Origin: a virus | Taxonomy: Duplodnaviria > Heunggongvirae > Uroviricota > Caudoviricetes | Direction: 5' to 3' (one strand) | DNA: 24,381 nucleotides | IMG/VR virus record: IMGVR_UViG_2531839666_000027 | In this document: piece after piece, positions 1-20,394 of the stretch | Position numbering within the stretch: the first letter of the stretch is position 1 | How the letters are laid out: every line of letters starts with the position of its first letter | Notes under the pieces: generated by a model | Told to the model about the DNA's origin: nothing | Seen by the model: only the letters and a program-made list of their open reading frames with translations | The model's database searches: none | Program-made: the position numbers and the translations under genes

Positions 1-1284
1 TTACAGACTTCTGGAAGGTTGCGCAGCTCTTACAACACGCGGTTGATCTTCCGCAGCGTCTTCCAGCGCACTTAAATCACGGTCTTTCACCTCTGGCATT
101 TTCAGCGCAGAGATTAAACCAATTACTGAATATGCCATGATCATAATGGCGATCGGATACCAGGATTCCGTCATGGTGCAGAAAATACCCGCCAGGATAG
201 GACCAAAACCGGAAGCGATAAGACCACCAATTTCTTTAGAAATAGCCATCCGGGTAAAGCGGTTTTTACAGCCGAACATTTCTGCCATGGTAATGTTTTC
301 CAGAGCAAATAATCCCAGCACCGCACAGTTATGAATCACAATCAGTGCAACCATAATGGTGCTCGGGGCATAGCTTTTATCTACAATGATAGAAAGCATT
401 GGCCATGCCAGCACAATCGCGGAGGTATTCATAATAATATACGGGATCCGGCGACCAATTTTATCGGATAACCAACCAAGGAACGGAATGGTCATAAAGC
501 CGAGAATCGAACTAATCATCAATGCATCTGTTGGAATTGCTTTGTTAAACAATAACGTCTGCACTAAATAGCCTGCAAGGAAAGTCTGAATTAACCCAGA
601 GTTACCCGCCTGACCAAAACGCAGCCCTGTTGCCAGCCAGAAGGATTTGCTCTGGAACATGCTACCAGCAGGTGCAGGTTTTGCTGTGGGTTGGTTGCTG
701 TCATTAACCTTCTCAAAGACCGGGCTTTCTTTCAGATTCATACGTAACCAGATAGCAAAGACCATCACGACAACGCTCGCCAGGAACGGTATACGCCATC
801 CCCACGCCAGCAGTTCCTCTTTACTGAGAATGAAGAACATAAAGGCCCAGATTGCCGTTGCGCTCAAGGTTCCGCAGTTAGTTCCCATAGCTACAAATGA
901 GGAGATAATTCCGCGCTTACCTTTTGGTGCATATTCCGCCAGCATCGTACCGGCACCGGAAATTTCCGCACCTGCACCCAACCCCTGAATAATACGCAGC
1001 GTCACCAGCAAGATGGGGGCAAAAACACCAATCTGTGCATAGGTCGGTAACACACCAATTAAGGTGGTACAGATCCCCATCATGGTGATGGTAATAAAGA
1101 GCACTTTTTTACGCCCTATTCTGTCGCCCATTTTGCCGAAAATAAATGCTCCGACAATACGCGCCACATAACCTGCACCGTAGGTTCCCATTGCCAAAAT
1201 TAACGCCATTGCCGTTGATGATTCAGGAAAAAATATTTCATGAAACACTAACGCTGCGCCGAGCGAATATAACTGGAAATCCAT
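1..1284 (-). CDS. ydfJ: MFS-family transporter (YdfJ-like); begins at the TM2 region with the G-x-x-x-D-R-x-G-R-K-K loop motif about 50 aa in, so TM1 appears missing (5'-truncated at the prophage junction)
   Basis: 427-aa ORF with many hydrophobic helices and the MFS loop motif GKMGDRIGRKK; ATG at 1284..1282; stop TAA at the window edge (3..1). Sequence matches my recollection of E. coli YdfJ. Confidence 0.85.
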   Translation of the reverse strand: MDFQLYSLGAALVFHEIFFPESSTAMALILAMGTYGAGYVARIVGAFIFGKMGDRIGRKKVLFITITMMGICTTLIGVLPTYAQIGVFAPILLVTLRIIQGLGAGAEISGAGTMLAEYAPKGKRGIISSFVAMGTNCGTLSATAIWAFMFFILSKEELLAWGWRIPFLASVVVMVFAIWLRMNLKESPVFEKVNDSNQPTAKPAPAGSMFQSKSFWLATGLRFGQAGNSGLIQTFLAGYLVQTLLFNKAIPTDALMISSILGFMTIPFLGWLSDKIGRRIPYIIMNTSAIVLAWPMLSIIVDKSYAPSTIMVALIVIHNCAVLGLFALENITMAEMFGCKNRFTRMAISKEIGGLIASGFGPILAGIFCTMTESWYPIAIMIMAYSVIGLISALKMPEVKDRDLSALEDAAEDQPRVVRAAQPSRSL

Positions 1285-3881: not shown

Positions 3882-6691
3882 TATGCAAGCCTCACAATAT
3901 AGTTAAATGCGATGTTTTTGACGGTGTTTTCCGCGTTACCAGCAGCGTTAACGGTGATGGTGTGTCCATGTGAACCAATCGCAACGGAGTGCGTATGAGC
4001 ACCAATACCGACAGTATGCGCGTGTGCACCTGCAGATGCTGCTGTGCCGGACAGTGAATGGCTATGATTACCATCTGTACTGGTATTCGCTAACCACCCC
4101 GTAAACATACCTACTGAGCCTTGTACACCCCAGGTATTTTGACCTGAGCTTGTATAACCATATTGATAAGTATCTTTAAAAACACTGGGGTTAAATCGAC
4201 GGCCATCTCTATGGCTGTGATTACCAGCTGCATTCGTGCTGCCACTTAAACTATGGGTATGCGCACCAGTGTTATTCGTGGATTTAGTGCCGTAATCAAA
4301 CGACGATGTGGTTTTCGTCCCCAAATCCGTACTGGATGCGCTGGCGCTGTGGGTATGCGATTTAATGCCGTCCTGTTCCTGAGACAATACGGCCCGACCA
4401 CTGGCAGGTTTGCCCTTAATCGTCCAGCCACGCATATCAGGGATCACGCCTGACGGATAAGCGGCTGCAAGTTTCGGGTATGCAGATTTGTCAAAAGTCT
4501 GCCCCTGCATCAGGGCATAGCCAGACGGAACGGTATCTGATGGCCACGGGATTGGTGCGCCAGGCGGATAAAACTGCTCTGATGGCGTATAGAGTGAATA
4601 AACTGTACCGTCCGTTAACCCTTCCGGCTTATTAGCAGAATATGCTGGTGACGTATGAATCGTCACGCTGGCATTACTGGTATAATCCCATTGAATATTT
4701 ACACCAGTCGCATAATTTCCGATTGCAACGTAAATATCGTAAGTATCACCAGATGTATTGACCCAGGCAAAATTTGTAAACCCTGTCGATGTGCGCTGCC
4801 ATAAAGCACCAGTAATCCCCTTCGGATTACCATTACCTGCACGTAAAACAAGTTCAGATATACCTGCCTGTTGAGGTGACCCCACGTTAAATCCAGCGCC
4901 ACCAATCAACGTAATTGAAACAACAGAACTCGCCTGTGGCATGGTTACCGTTGCTAATTTGAACCAACCAGCACCACCGCTGAATGACATTGTTGTTGAG
5001 TTAAGCGTACCAATATCTTTCGGCGTCAGTGTTATATCCGCTGAAAGCGCCTTACCATTCACCTTACGGGCAGAAGGTACCCGACCATTCGCATTGTCAT
5101 TAGCTGCTTTCACTGCTTTCGGTGTCGCAGCAAGCGTTTCAGATGTGCTGTTGGTTGCACTACTGAGCTGGACAATTCCTTTTTGTGCTGTCGTAGCGTC
5201 CTGTGCGGTGTATTTCCCGTTAGCCAGGTCATACGCGGCCTTAACGGCTTTTGGCGTTGCCGCCTGTGACTCGGAAGTGCTGTTAGTCGCACTGCTGAGC
5301 TGAACTATCCCTTTCTGTGCTGTCGTTGCATCCTGTGCGGTGTATTTCCCGTTAGCCAGGTCATACGCGGCCTTAACGGCTTTTGGCGTTGCCGCCTGTG
5401 ACTCGGAAGTGCTGTTGGTCGCACTGCTGAGCTGTACTATCCCCTTTTTCGTCGTGCTCGCATCCTCAAGCGCCACGGCGGATGCAATATCCTCTGCCCG
5501 TTTTGCTGCTGTCTCGGCGCGCGTTGCCGCGGATTCCGCCGTACTTTTGCTCTGTGCTGCCGCTGCCGCACTGCCAGCAGCCTCTGTCGCCTTCGTGGAT
5601 GCCGTCGTGGCGCTGCCCCTCGCTGCTGACGCCTGTCTGGTCGCCTCATCTTTTGAAGCAGACGCAGATGATGCCGATGACGCCGCCGAACTGGCGGACG
5701 ATGCGGCAGCCGTTTTTGAGGATTCTGCGCTGGTTTCCGACGCTTTCGCGTTCGTTTCGGATGTCTTCGCTGCGGAAGCAGACCTCGCTGCTGCGCTGGC
5801 CTGTTCAGTGGCTTCGCCAGCCTTCGTTGTGGCTGTTGAAGCGGATGATGCGGCGCTTTCTGCCGATTTTCCGGCGGCGGTGGCACTGACTGCTGCCTCC
5901 TCTGCCTTAATGGACGCCTCACGGGCCGATGATGCAGCTGCTGTCTCAGAGTCTGCCGCAGCTGAGGCGCTCTGTTCCGCTGCCGTTTCAGAAGACCTGG
6001 CATTCGTCTCGGACGTTTTTGCCGCCTTCACGGAATTTCCTGCCGCCGTTGCCGAGGAGGCTGCACTGCTGGCGCTTGTGGAGGCGTTCGTTTCTGATGA
6101 TTTTGCCGCCTCTTTGGAGGCCGCCGCATCTCTGGCTGAAGTGGCGGCTTCTGACGCTTTCGTCGTCGCAGTGGATGCAGAAGTGGCTGCTGATTTTTGT
6201 GACGCTGCAGCATTCGTTTCTGACGTTTTCGCCGCACCGGCACTGGTGGCCGCCGCGCTTTTTGAGGACTCTGCAGCGGCAGCACTTTTTGATGCTTCAG
6301 TGGCCTTTGTTGATGCCGTTCCTGCGCTGGAAGACGCCTCCTGAGCCGAAGTCGCGGCCTGTCCGGCTGACGTGCTGGCTGCACGCGCTGAGCCTGCAGC
6401 ATCAGTCGCATGGGTTGCCGCCTCACGGGCAGATGTGCCGGCATCACTGGCTGACTTCTTCGCGGCTGCCGTGTTCTGTGCCACCGCGGACGCGTTACGC
6501 GCCACCTCTTCCACCATCAGTTCAAAACGGCGCAGAGCCTCCGGACGGGCATCATCCTCCGTCATGGCACCGAGAAAATCATTCAGCGTACCGGGTCGGG
6601 AATCTTCATACACGGTGATGGTCCCGGCATGTGACGGCGGGAATCCTTCCACCAACAGAATAACGCTGTACTGACCGTACTCAACGTCCAT
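3881..6691 (-). CDS. stfQ: side tail fibre protein Stf, 5'-truncated by the IS (lacks about 50 N-terminal codons relative to lambda Stf); open frame continues to the IS boundary at 6699
   Basis: 936-aa ORF; Ala/Ser/Thr-rich rod, repeated [14 protein letters not shown] modules, C-terminal His-rich domain ...[38 protein letters not shown] as in lambda Stf. The frame upstream of the first ATG stays open (..[11 protein letters not shown]) until the IS end. Confidence 0.85.
5080..5460. repeat. about 2.8 copies of a near-perfect 132-bp tandem direct repeat inside stf (44-aa module [44 protein letters not shown])
   Basis: Directly visible: cctgtgcggtgtatttcccgttagccaggtcatacgcggccttaacggcttttggcgttgccgcctgtgactcggaagtgctgtt recurs at about 5201 and 5333 with 1-2 mismatches, plus a partial copy below 5200. 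Confidence 0.8.
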
Positions 6692-6707: not shown

Positions 6708-9021
<2,314 letters not shown>

Positions 9022-9034
9022 CCTGAACCAGGAA

Positions 9035-10543
9035 TTATTCTTCGGACTGGTCGTCGGTGTGCTGCGGCTCCTGTCGTTTCGTTGCGGCACTACTGCCTCC
9101 TTTATCACTGGCCGGATCGGTATCAAATACCAGATCCAGATTGCGGTTTTCATCAATTTCGGCCTTGCGCCGACGTTTGACATCATCCGGATTACGACCA
9201 CCAGCACGTACCCAGTCTGATTCTGTCGCCGCTCCACCACGAATCTGGATTTTCCAGGCCTCAGCCTCCTTAACAGGGTCAATCCACGGCATCACTGGTC
9301 CGGAATACACCGCGGTATACAGTGAAGAACGGTCAAGATCGCGGGGTAGCCTGATAACACCGGATGCCACAGCCTGTTTCAGCCATGCACGATACATCGG
9401 GCGGGTGACGGCACCAATAAACCAGTCCTGCAGGATCAGGTAGCCATCAGTGGATTCAACCAGCTCCTGACGCTGGGCGCTGTAAGTGCCGTTATAGTTG
9501 CGCGCTGTACTGGAAAAACTCAGACGACTGCCCGCCGCCACGGCACGCAACTGACCATTACGAAAAGTTTCAAGGTTAGGATTGGGGCGATCCGACTTCA
9601 CCATTCCGATTTCTTCGCCGGGTTTCAGATCGTCGTAAATAATGCCCGGCTGAATGGTAAGCTCACGTTCATTCTCCTTTCTGCCATTACCATCCGGTTC
9701 ATAGCTCTGCCCGTCGCCTTTCCGGATGTACATCCCCAGAGCAGCGGCGATCCTTGCTGCAGTCAGCTCAGAATCTTCATATTCTTTCAGGGCACTGAGG
9801 CGGATCAGCACACCGGACAACAAAGACGTCCCGCGCATCTGGTGCAGACGGCGAACAAATTTAAGATGCAGCATTCGCTCTGCATCCACTTCTTTGGTTT
9901 CCATCTGCCGTCCGGATACGGGACGGCTTTTATACACCAGATATTTTTCGGGACGCCCCCAGTCATCAACAAACACGCCCTGATTCAGCCTGTTGCTCTC
10001 ATCACTGGTCATGGGAATAAAGTCCGGCTCGAGCGCCTCCAGCCAGAAATGAACACCGGCAGAAGGCGCCAGGCTGTTTATGCGCCCGGAAACCATCTGG
10101 GCAAACACCTCACCATCGCGCAGCCAGGTACGAAGCATCAGACGTTCCAGCATCGGACGGGTAAACTGCCCGGTGACTTCCGGGCTGACAGACCATTCAC
10201 TCCATCGGGTGCGAATCTCCGCAGCCAGGTCACGGGCAATGGCCCCATTGCGTAATACCGGATGTGGCTCGACAATAATCCCGTTTTTCCCCACCACCCG
10301 TTCTTCCAGCTTGTCAAATACACCAATAACCAGATCGTGGTTGTTATCAAGGTAACGGGCCTGCTCACGTAACGACACGGCCCCGTACTGGCTTAACTGG
10401 TCGGCAGTTCGGTTCTCCCGTCGGGCTTTGTGTGTCCGCGTCGTTTTTACGGCCTCATAAGCCTGGATCACCGCACGGGAACGCAGCCTTGCCGCTTTCC
10501 ATCCTGGTGAAAAAACGCCAATCACATCATCAAGAATTGCCAT
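9035..10543 (-). CDS. portal protein (lambda gpB family)
   Basis: Long ORF in the portal position between the W-like gene and the protease; likely start MAILDDVIGV... at ATG 10543..10541, overlapping the W stop (ATGA); ORF-track start is 10615. Confidence 0.85.
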   Translation of the reverse strand: MAILDDVIGVFSPGWKAARLRSRAVIQAYEAVKTTRTHKARRENRTADQLSQYGAVSLREQARYLDNNHDLVIGVFDKLEERVVGKNGIIVEPHPVLRNGAIARDLAAEIRTRWSEWSVSPEVTGQFTRPMLERLMLRTWLRDGEVFAQMVSGRINSLAPSAGVHFWLEALEPDFIPMTSDESNRLNQGVFVDDWGRPEKYLVYKSRPVSGRQMETKEVDAERMLHLKFVRRLHQMRGTSLLSGVLIRLSALKEYEDSELTAARIAAALGMYIRKGDGQSYEPDGNGRKENERELTIQPGIIYDDLKPGEEIGMVKSDRPNPNLETFRNGQLRAVAAGSRLSFSSTARNYNGTYSAQRQELVESTDGYLILQDWFIGAVTRPMYRAWLKQAVASGVIRLPRDLDRSSLYTAVYSGPVMPWIDPVKEAEAWKIQIRGGAATESDWVRAGGRNPDDVKRRRKAEIDENRNLDLVFDTDPASDKGGSSAATKRQEPQHTDDQSEE

Positions 10544-14876: not shown

Positions 14877-15027
14877 ACCATAACGTCCGGCTTCTCTCAC
14901 TCCTGAGCCGGACTGCATTGGTTTAATAAAAACCATCAACAATTGTGATTTAGATATTCGGAACCATTCAAATATAACAAAACCCCGTAAAAACGAGGTT
15001 TATGGATAAATTTTATTATTGAATACA

Positions 15028-15203
15028 TCAGATTAAATTAATCTTGACATCATAGCTTTCAAGACCCGTCATTTTTTCCCGTGCGGTAAACTGAATACTG
15101 GTAACTTCTTTCCCGGTCTTTTTCTTAAGTTCAATAATTTTTTTGTTATATATTCAGAAATATCTGCTTCTGCTTTTGTTTTTAAGTTTTCAATATTCAT
15201 CAT
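15028..15203 (-). pseudogene. gnsB: gnsB-like gene with a 1-nt deletion in a poly-A run
   Basis: Hand translation: frame A gives MMNIENLKTKAEADISEYITKK then goes out of frame; frame B continues KKIIELKKKTGKEVTSIQFTAREKMTGLESYDVKINLI*. The two join into a 58-aa Gns-like protein only if the run at 15138-15144 is A8 rather than A7. Confidence 0.6.
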
Positions 15204-15371
15204 TTCCTCTTTTAGTCTGTTATGACTTTCCAGTTACACAGTAAGTCGATTATATGGTGCAAACGTGTAAAAGATAAGATGAAACATCGCAATAATCAAC
15301 ATACGATAGTCTAAATTTTACACAAACAGACAAAGAGAATTTTCCTGAATTATCAATACAATAGCATCAAA

Positions 15372-15527
15372 TCAACTCAAGAGCCTTATTGCTGCTTCCA
15401 GAATTTCTTCTGAAGTAACATGTCGATCCGCGGCTACATAAATGACTTTATGATCTCCGGTCAGAGATGGAAACCCTGCGGCCATTACAGTAAGGTGTGT
15501 TTTTTCGCCATTTGGATATTCACGCAT
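15372..15527 (-). CDS. ynfN: small prophage protein YnfN-like (51 aa)
   Basis: ORF-track 15372..15563; internal ATG 15527 (MREYPNGEKTHLTVMAAGF...) matches my recollection of YnfN. Confidence 0.55.
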   Translation of the reverse strand: MREYPNGEKTHLTVMAAGFPSLTGDHKVIYVAADRHVTSEEILEAAIRLLS

Positions 15528-15640
15528 GATGGTGTTAACTCCAGTCATCGCTGGCACTACCACTGCTGGTTCAGAGTTAAAAAAACTATGATTTTTTCAT
15601 GATGTTACCGTAGTATGTGAGTATCCATCGAATAGATACC

Positions 15641-15666
15641 AAGCAAAAAAGCTCCCGAAGGAGCCT
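15641..15666 (-). terminator. putative intrinsic terminator (hairpin GCTCC-CGAA-GGAGC with a T-tract on the minus strand)
   Basis: plus aagcaaaaaagctcccgaaggagccttcattttcactttttt; the minus strand reads the hairpin followed by TTTTTTGCTT. Confidence 0.4.
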
Positions 15667-15871
15667 TCATTTTCACTTTTTTAAATCCAACGACAGACGG
15701 CTGGCATTTAAGTATTGTGAAATATTATCAAATGTAATCATCATTGATTTACAAAAGATACATTTTGCCCCGAAAGGATTCATGTCAGAAACATCAAAAG
15801 ATGATGTTCTATACTGGGAACCATGACAACACGGGCATCTAAAGTGAATATGGTTTGTAATATTGTCTACC

Positions 15872-16084
15872 TCAAAGCGCCACTACATGAACAGCGGCAG
15901 GACCTTTAGGTCCGTTCTCAATACCAAATTCAACTTCCTGATTCTCAGTTAATGTTTTGAAATCGTTGCTCTGAATTGCTGAGAAATGGACAAACACATC
16001 TTTGCTGCCATCTTTCGGCGTGATGAAACCAAAACCTTTTTCAGGGTTAAACCATTTCACTAAACCAGTCATTTTGTTAGACAT
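15872..16084 (-). CDS. cspI: cold-shock protein (CspA family)
   Basis: 70-aa [41 protein letters not shown]... with RNP1/RNP2 motifs. Confidence 0.9.
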
Positions 16085-16446
16085 AATTATTACCTTTTGA
16101 AGAAATTAGCCCTTGGGCAGAATGGTCCGAAAAAAAATATCAGAGAGAAAAACCAACAAGGAAATCTCAAGAGGTACAAATAATAAAATTATAACAATGA
16201 CTGCTTCAGATAAATTTGTAACAAACCAGAACACCATTAACGCATGATTAACCACCCATAGCAAGGATTACTTTTGTAAAGAAAAACACAGCAATGAAAG
16301 AATAGCTTTATTTATTAATAAAACGTGTCATTCTGATTAAGACCTTTTATCTTACCCTTAAGATTTCAGGAATTTTGGCTCATGGAAGAGTCCTTTTTAT
16401 TTAAATTTTACATTCCGCGATGTAAATGTTCCGATTTAATATTACC

Positions 16447-17469
<1,023 letters not shown>

Positions 17470-18970: not shown

Positions 18971-19280
18971 TCTACATTCCTTAACTTGAGCCTTTCGGCA
19001 TAAATGGTTTGCATAACAGAAACGACTTCGTACTTAATTGGAGAGACTCAAAGAAGGAATAAGTGAATAACACCTGAAATGAGAACTGCTTTAGTAAACT
19101 ACTTCGTATATCGTCTGTTCTTCAAACCGACGCAGTCATTAACTCATAGTTGAACATATGAAGCAATGTTTATTTTAGACATCCAGCCACCTTCAATCCT
19201 ATCAAAAAAGTAGTTTTCTCCAGGAACGTGTGTATGGTGCACCAGGTTATCAGTATTAAGGAGTTTTTCTGTCCCCTAAA

Positions 19281-19480
19281 ATGACAGGAATTGTCAAAAA
19301 CTTTGACTACAAAAGCAGCAAAGGTCTTATATTCCCATCCGATGGCGTATCGATGCCCAGCTTCACGTTTCAGCTCTCAATCTTCGAGATGCAGAAGAAA
19401 TTACCACAGGATTACGCGTGGAATTTTGCTGGATAAATGGTTCGCGTGGACCTTCAACTGCCAATGTTTATCCCGGGATG
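19281..19480 (+). pseudogene. cspF: cspF-like cold-shock paralog relic: frameshift after codon 23 and loss of the normal stop
   Basis: ATG 19281 gives [22 protein letters not shown] then goes out of frame; the continuation ...[42 protein letters not shown] is in another frame and reads on into ORF 19418..19747. Confidence 0.5.
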
Positions 19481-19644: not shown

Positions 19645-20394
19645 TTATCTCGTCACCTTCCTCAATTGCGCTTCCGCGTATGCTTCTTCCTGCCAGCACT
19701 TTGTTACCAGTTTACCAATGACGTCCGCATACCCCTTATACCACTGATAATCGGTCAGGTCTGGTACCAGCTTCTGGACATGACGTCGTGCCAGCGTGGT
19801 CGGTAAACGACTAAACCGGTTTCCATTACAACGCCCACAAATCTTATATACCGGTACGCCATGAAACCGGTTCTTTTTCATCCAGAACAATCCCTTTACC
19901 CTTACACCCTCTGCACGCTGTGCTGACTTCGCCCTTACCATGGCAATGCTGACATAGTTCCTTCACCCATTCTTCCTTGATTACAGATTCCCCGCGTCTG
20001 TAGTGTTTCACCACTTCGCGCAATACATTATAAAATCCCGTACCTGAACAATGCTCACAGCGAGCCTTACTTGCCGCAGACCTGGAGTAATCAGCAAAGG
20101 CAAAATTCACGAGGTAAGGAATAATCTGTAACCGGATTTCTTCACTCAATTTGTTCAATGTCGGGTTATCCAGTGCCATCGCGTAATTTAGCAGGCCTTC
20201 AATCGCAAACTGAGCGTCCTGAACACCAACTTTTGCCAGAAATAAGGCCAACCCAAGTGGTGCTTTCGACTGCACCATCCCCTGCGCTGCCATTACATCC
20301 GTAATTGTTAAACAACCGGTGCCTGTCGCTGGAGCGTCATCGCTCAATTTTGGAGATTTTGGGGAGTAATATTTTGGTAAGGCTTCAAGGTTCA
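19645..20394 (-). pseudogene. quuQ: late antiterminator Q, split by a frameshift at an A5 run (19874-19878)
   Basis: Starts MNLEALPKYYSPKSPKL... at ATG 20394; frame 1 ends ...CRGCKGKGIVLDEKEPVSWRTGI*, frame 2 continues ...NRFHGVPVYKICGRCNGNRFSR...QLRKVTR*. An A4 run would give one continuous Q protein of about 250 aa with Cys-rich zinc-binding motifs. Confidence 0.65.

Follow-up and report, generated by a model that had tools for sequence, protein, structure and literature searches.

The gnsB gene of a Qin-type prophage

Between positions 15028 and 15203 of the window, by which we mean the whole 24,381-nucleotide stretch of DNA that was analysed, the minus strand carries gnsB, a member of the GnsA/GnsB family located in a Qin-type prophage. 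These coordinates extend from the first ATG to the stop codon, and the assignment rests on the match to the Pfam family PF08178 and on identity with the E. coli K-12 gene. Two adjacent ATG codons, at 15203 and 15200 of the minus strand, are found at the 5′ end, the second of which (15200-15198) is the start annotated in RefSeq and UniProt. A putative Shine-Dalgarno-like element, AAGAGGA (15205..15211, minus strand), can be read from the sequence 5′ of the start codons, and the spacing of its AAGAGG portion (15211-15206) suits the second ATG, the start of the 57-aa form, better than the first. At the other end of the gene, 27 nt past the stop codon, lies an intrinsic-terminator-like hairpin with a T-rich tail (14980..15001, minus strand); one such hairpin was found 3′ of gnsB compared to 0.2 expected in shuffled sequences.

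As recorded, the window does not contain an intact gnsB frame of about 57 aa, since the reading frame shifts after codon 21/22 and is terminated after 43/44 aa. The site of the one-base loss is a run of seven A residues (A7; 15138..15144 on the minus strand, T7 on the plus strand), whose zero-frame codons are ACA AAA AAA. The ORF as encoded (15069..15203, minus strand) comprises 44 aa, or 43 aa from the second ATG, and reads M(M)NIENLKTKAEADISEYITKK followed by LLNLRKRPGKKLPVFSLPHGKK out of frame, i.e. 21-22 true GnsB residues, then 22 out-of-frame residues and a TGA at 15071-15069. The 3′ part of the gene (15028..15137, minus strand) is placed in the -1 frame, where it encodes IIELKKKTGKEVTSIQFTAREKMTGLESYDVKINLI and ends with the stop codon at 15030-15028; conservation within the family is highest in this part. 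When a single A is added to the run, the two frames fuse into a protein of 58 aa, or 57 aa counted from the second ATG. This repaired protein matches PF08178 (GnsAB_toxin) over profile positions 1-54 of 54 (E=3.3e-35, 120.2 bits, cut-off 27), while the unrepaired 44-aa ORF covers positions 1-32 only (50.3 bits) and the -1-frame part positions 22-54 (75.5 bits).

With the exception of the single lost A, the coding sequence matches, base for base, gnsB of K-12 MG1655 (ydfY, b1550; WP_001019606.1), which is located in Qin, and the repaired 57-aa protein is 100% identical to K-12 GnsB (GNSB_ECOLI in the protein collection). The A8 run of gnsB spans codons 19-22. We found A8 (ACA AAA AAA ATT/ATC) in all intact gnsB genes examined, including a variant of 93% identity, and none of them carried A7. 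RefSeq places gnsB at the same position in two close relatives of the window, one of which is JNEC-KY202. The first-pass annotation, which had described a gnsB-like gene of the Gns family broken by the loss of one nucleotide in an A-run, was thus right in family, lesion and all coordinates, and the gene can be named gnsB itself. Its joined product of 58 aa applies to the first ATG, the RefSeq and UniProt start giving 57 aa. It had also attributed the absence of the gene from the ORF track to the lesion. Neither state of the gene is indeed displayed there; however, the lesion is not the cause, because the intact gene is likewise shorter than 60 aa and gnsB, intact or broken, escapes a track limited to ORFs of at least 60 aa.

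The neighbourhood of the gene matches that of K-12 gnsB (ydfO/DUF1398 - gnsB - ynfN - ynfR - ymcF - cspI). In the window, the gene order is ydfJ′ - ynfT - ydfK - pinQ - tfaQ - tail fibre - IS3 - head/terminase genes - DUF1398 - gnsB, continued by ynfN - ynfR - ymcF - cspI - lysis genes - cspB - ydfT - ydfU - rem - hokD. The 5′ neighbour of gnsB is thus the ydfO-like DUF1398 gene, and on the 3′ side we found ynfN, ynfR, ymcF/ynfQ, cspI, rzpQ, rrrQ, ydfR and essD, and further on cspB, a cspF remnant, ydfT, ydfU, rem and hokD. Two differences to the K-12 locus were observed: the run is A8 in K-12 and A7 in the window, and the prophage of the window is a larger relative of Qin, in which terminase, portal and tail-fibre genes are still present and the capsid gene is cut short by an IS3-family element. 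Three features of the prophage are common to the window and its relatives, namely the truncation of ydfJ by the prophage insertion (window 1-1284), the truncation of a ClpP-like protease/major capsid fusion gene (7948-9090) by the IS3-family element (6708-7874), and the frameshifted cspF remnant (about 19270-19470). Because these features are also present in the relatives, the prophage is defective irrespective of the homopolymer deletions of the window described below. As judged from its sequence and surroundings, the locus is the ordinary gnsB of a Qin-type cryptic E. coli prophage.

The paralogue gnsA (yccL) belongs to the same Pfam family and shares 74% DNA identity with gnsB, and the GnsA crystal structures 4XO1/4XO2 align to GnsB residues 1-56 (E=5e-20). 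In contrast to gnsB, the corresponding site of gnsA holds an in-frame A6 (CAA AAA ATC); gnsA also overlaps ymcE, and in every genome its location is chromosomal. The paralogy extends beyond the single gene, as the prophage segment cspI-ymcF-ynfR-ynfN-gnsB (15028-16084) is paralogous to the chromosomal cspG-ymcF-ymcE-gnsA segment (UTI89 locus); on the chromosome, ymcE and the start of gnsA share 11 nt, compared to a gap of about 170 nt between ynfN and gnsB in the prophage. The effects of gnsA and gnsB overexpression were reportedly described by Sugai et al. 2001. Passages in two preprints state that overexpression of either gene leads to more unsaturated fatty acids in phospholipids and to suppression of fabA6(Ts) as well as of the cold sensitivity of a secG-null mutant, and mention the claim of a toxin role for GnsA together with YmcE (bioRxiv 10.1101/2024.03.27.586906, 10.1101/2024.11.06.622226). 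In Pfam and RefSeq, the GnsA/GnsB family is labelled "addiction module toxin".

Homopolymer deletions along the window

Over its whole length, the window has a 99.9%-identical counterpart in four complete RefSeq genomes, in which the corresponding stretch is 23-25 bases longer, and no complete RefSeq E. coli genome is identical to it. We aligned the window with three of the four, including CFIAFB20190167 and JNEC-KY202. Compared to these relatives, the window shows 16 deletion events that amount to 24 bases in total, each of them within a single-base run or removing one, along with no insertion at all and two private substitutions (positions 4104 and 14690). The deletions are located at 2317, 3207, 7036 (CCCGGGG), 7065 (GGG), 7609, 12736, 15137 (in gnsB) and 15578 in the first half of the series, and at 15591, 17443, 18414, 19597, twice near 19870 (19870-19875), 20450 and 20757 in the second. 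The gnsB lesion had been described as another homopolymer lesion of this prophage, and the 15 further ones confirm this description.

The contraction rate climbs with the length of the run. None of 12989 runs of length 1 was contracted, compared to 2 of 3536 runs of length 2, 4 of 812 of length 3, 1 of 275 of length 4 and 1 of 106 of length 5, corresponding to at most 1% in all of these classes. The rate reached about 18% for lengths 6-7 (6 of 34 and 1 of 6, respectively) and 50% for length 8 (2 of 4). Seven genes are disrupted in this way: pinQ loses its stop, the terminase L gene meets a stop at aa 48 and the lysozyme gene rrrQ at aa 15, and the IS3 transposase gene, ynfN, the antiterminator gene ydfT and ydfU are broken as well. 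All seven are intact in the three relatives.

Two of these genes were followed across 5,426 complete E. coli genomes. The combination of the 7-bp and the 3-bp deletion in the IS3 element of the window was found in none of the 1,724 copies of that IS, the best identity being 93%, and none of 1,570 genomes carried the double deletion of ynfN. A 55-nt pattern across the private IS3 deletions likewise had no match in the collections viral_contigs and genome_contigs. In the IS3 transposase gene (minus strand, about 6708-7874), CCCGGGG and GGG are wholly removed within 30 bp, which is odd even for under-calling of homopolymers. In the 5′ part of ynfN (minus strand), A8 is contracted to A7 at 15579-15585 and T7 to T6 at 15592-15597. 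K-12 strains naturally carry A7 at the first of these ynfN runs, hence the mark "frameshifted" on K-12 ynfN in RefSeq. Real homopolymer polymorphism does occur in this small-gene cluster.

Taken as read from the alignments, the deletion pattern of the window is what under-calling of homopolymers leaves behind in an assembly, because 15 private homopolymer deletions next to two substitutions are unlike the divergence of close genomes. The pattern resembles that of long-read and flow-based assemblies affected by such under-calling, in which deletions occur without insertions, the rate depends steeply on run length, and many apparent frameshifts appear in conserved genes. It differs from simple under-calling in the two events that delete whole short runs in the IS3 element. 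We also considered a mutator lineage deficient in mismatch repair, which we consider unlikely in view of the spectra generally shown by mutators, as there are no insertions, only two substitutions compared to 15 private indels, and two deletions of whole runs. The decay of the prophage by homopolymer lesions that the first-pass annotation implied is not borne out either: the lesions are deletion-only and dependent on run length, and those outside gnsB outnumber the private substitutions by 15 to 2 and are absent from the three relatives and, for the IS3 and ynfN lesions, from all 5,426 complete genomes. The gnsB lesion, which also occurs in otherwise clean assemblies, is the exception and alone might be real. 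Finished genomes also hold isolated homopolymer differences, as illustrated by JNEC-KY202, whose ydfJ remnant, annotated as frameshifted, has GGG in place of GG at position 857 (about 856 in the window), a G that is private to this genome.

Length variation of the gnsB tract in E. coli

In order to place the A7 call in the population, complete genomes were searched with a 71-nt probe covering the gnsB tract, and matches with identical flanks were counted by tract length. A7 was found in 41 genomes, A8 in 1431, A9 in four and, apparently, A10 in one, so that the in-frame A8 makes up about 97% and A7 about 2-3% of complete genomes. The lesion is thus present in independent assemblies, among them one of the four closest relatives of the window. 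Of the 16 deletions, no other is shared with a close relative: CFIAFB20190167 carries A7 but lacks the remaining 15. A8 is present in three of the four genomes with this exact prophage configuration, and FHI_NMBU_11 is not on the list of A7 genomes.

Among the genomes that were fetched, A7 occurs in five or more contexts of flanking haplotype, and near-identical sisters with A8 were fetched for two of these as well. For example, ER1709, a K-12 derivative with A7, and MG1655 with A8 differ at two positions in 2.3 kb. The number of haplotypes and the presence of near-identical A8 sisters indicate that the contraction to A7 arose, or was recorded, repeatedly. The truncated 43-aa product is present on at least 1000 public contigs from several sources, and the 41-aa reading in the style of RefSeq on 315 NCBI contigs.

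As a baseline we used two other runs of eight that are intact in the window. The coding T8 of rzpQ (16858-16865) is contracted to T7 in 3 of 1,486 genomes, and the intergenic A8 upstream of cspI (16130-16137) to A7 in 128 of 2,099. The contraction in gnsB is therefore about 13 times as frequent as that of the rzpQ run and less frequent than that of the intergenic run. If assembly error alone were responsible, the three runs should behave alike; instead, gnsB falls between a constrained and an unconstrained run. Most of the public A7 alleles of gnsB are probably real.

RefSeq treats these alleles in two ways. In ER1709, RM10042, Ecol_AZ155 and GZ04-0086 the gene is annotated as frameshifted, whereas in EC1, 14EC020 and CFIAFB20190167 it appears as the 41-aa protein WP_349812768.1; in both groups the tract is the same as in the window over 71 nt. 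WP_349812768.1, named "GnsA/GnsB family addiction module toxin", has ATA as its first codon, corresponds to window positions 15028-15153 and is found in newer annotations, while older annotations of the same allele give a "frameshifted" pseudogene. We rejected this CDS as an alternative intact reading of the A7 alleles, since its ATA start lies inside gnsB, has no ribosome-binding site and is hardly credible; it looks like an annotation rescue. Four A7 genomes are identical to the window over 481 nt. The difference to the window lies in the surroundings, as the RefSeq assemblies with A7 are otherwise clean around the locus and the window has its 15 further homopolymer deletions. A literature search for gnsB frameshifts yielded nothing specific. 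Overall, the gene is the known gnsB of K-12 and its A7 allele is already contained in RefSeq, and nothing about it is new in kind.

Origin and consequences of the one-base loss

The above results raise the question of whether the A7 of the window belongs to the strain or to its assembly. We consider it likely, at roughly 70%, that it is a sequencing or assembly error, i.e. one more under-called homopolymer, and the under-calling pattern across the window makes an artefact the default explanation for gnsB. The base caller or assembler would have under-counted a true A8 and recorded A7, the same process would have removed bases from the 15 other homopolymers in the 24 kb, and the strain itself would carry an intact gnsB. 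That the gnsB deletion is part of this window-wide error process is what we infer from the company it keeps.

Alternatively, the lesion may be genuine. Replication slippage on A8 would then have lost one A and inactivated gnsB, an example of recurrent and tolerated loss in a dispensable gene of a cryptic prophage. We regard this as the less probable explanation, albeit one to be taken seriously. The tract-length counts at identical flanks speak in its favour, as do the at least five haplotypes with near-identical A8 sisters, which point to repeated independent events, and a contraction rate above that of the rzpQ run and below that of the intergenic run is what is expected under weak constraint. 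Furthermore, one of the four closest relatives, CFIAFB20190167, carries A7 in an otherwise clean assembly, RefSeq marks A7 alleles as frameshifted, and long A/T runs have been described as hypermutable (PMC1088944, PMC4066793). However, since the assembly of the window contracts about one in three of its other runs of eight and about 18% of its runs of six or seven, an A7 call in it weighs little, and the population prior for A7 amounts to only about 3%. Moreover, the window and CFIAFB20190167 have no other derived character in common; with 4-6 substitutions between them, the window and the three relatives are arranged as a star, and SNP affinity is therefore uninformative as to whether the window belongs to the lineage of the A7 relative.

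These considerations can be combined in a rough Bayes estimate. With a probability of about 1/3 of reading A7 from a true A8, taken from the other runs of eight, a probability of about 0.83 of reading A7 from a true A7, and a prior for a true A7 between 3% (population) and 25% (nearest relatives), the probability that the lesion is real in the strain comes to about 7-45%, which we took as about 25%. If it is real, the 43-aa product, which keeps 21 GnsB residues and lacks the conserved C-terminal 35, about two thirds of the protein, should be inactive; it loses FTAREKMTGLESYDVKI, the segment most conserved between GnsA and GnsB.

It seems very improbable that the tract is functional, be it that A7 is expressed via recoding, either by -1 ribosomal frameshifting or by an RNA polymerase that adds an A, or that gnsB is switched on and off by phase variation. 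The sequence A_AAA_AAA (15144-15138, minus strand) does represent a canonical X_XXY_YYZ heptamer with the zero frame ACA AAA AAA, and its -1 frame yields the exact C-terminus of GnsB. However, the fold of the 88 nt that follow is less stable than those of shuffled sequences (-9.9 compared to a mean of -13.3 kcal/mol, z = +1.25; 177 of 200 shuffles at least as stable), and no GGAGG-like or Shine-Dalgarno-like element is present within 20 nt upstream of the heptamer. Neither is the two-frame layout conserved, as roughly 97% of genomes carry A8 in a single frame, as does the 93% variant, and gnsA is in frame as well. Programmed -1 frameshifting is thus rejected in spite of the fitting heptamer and frame by the lack of downstream structure, of an upstream Shine-Dalgarno-like element and of conservation. 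With respect to transcription, slippage at A-runs is documented to rescue frameshifted genes, mostly at runs of nine, and efficient slippage in bacteria typically requires runs of about this length (PMC1088944); A7/T7 motifs are avoided in genes owing to slippage and indel mutation (PMC4066793). Incidental low-level slippage on A7 could possibly yield a little full-length GnsB.

As for switching, natural alleles with 7, 8, 9 and 10 residues in the tract are all known, but eight nucleotides are few for a contingency locus. The ratio of A7 to A9 of 41:4 resembles one-way decay and not switching. The related proposal that A8 acts as a weak contingency tract, which recurrently switches a modulator of membrane fatty-acid unsaturation off and occasionally on with residual expression of A7 via slippage, would agree with the independent occurrence of A7 on at least five backgrounds and with the roughly 13-fold excess over the rzpQ run; plain relaxed selection on a dispensable gene fits the same numbers, and we think there is hardly a chance that the proposal applies.

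The recording error favoured here for gnsB has consequences for the annotation of the whole prophage. With about one homopolymer deletion per 1.5 kb, every apparent frameshift in the window is unreliable, and the breaks in the terminase, lysozyme, antiterminator, ydfU, ynfN, IS3 transposase and gnsB genes should not be taken as decay of the prophage unless they are seen in the reads. At the level of databases, the small-protein annotation at gnsB is inconsistent, as the same allele is given either as a frameshifted pseudogene or as a 41-aa CDS with an ATA start. Regardless of the state of the gene in this particular strain, within the E. coli population the gnsB A8 tract represents a genuine hot spot of mutation, at which A7 arises repeatedly.
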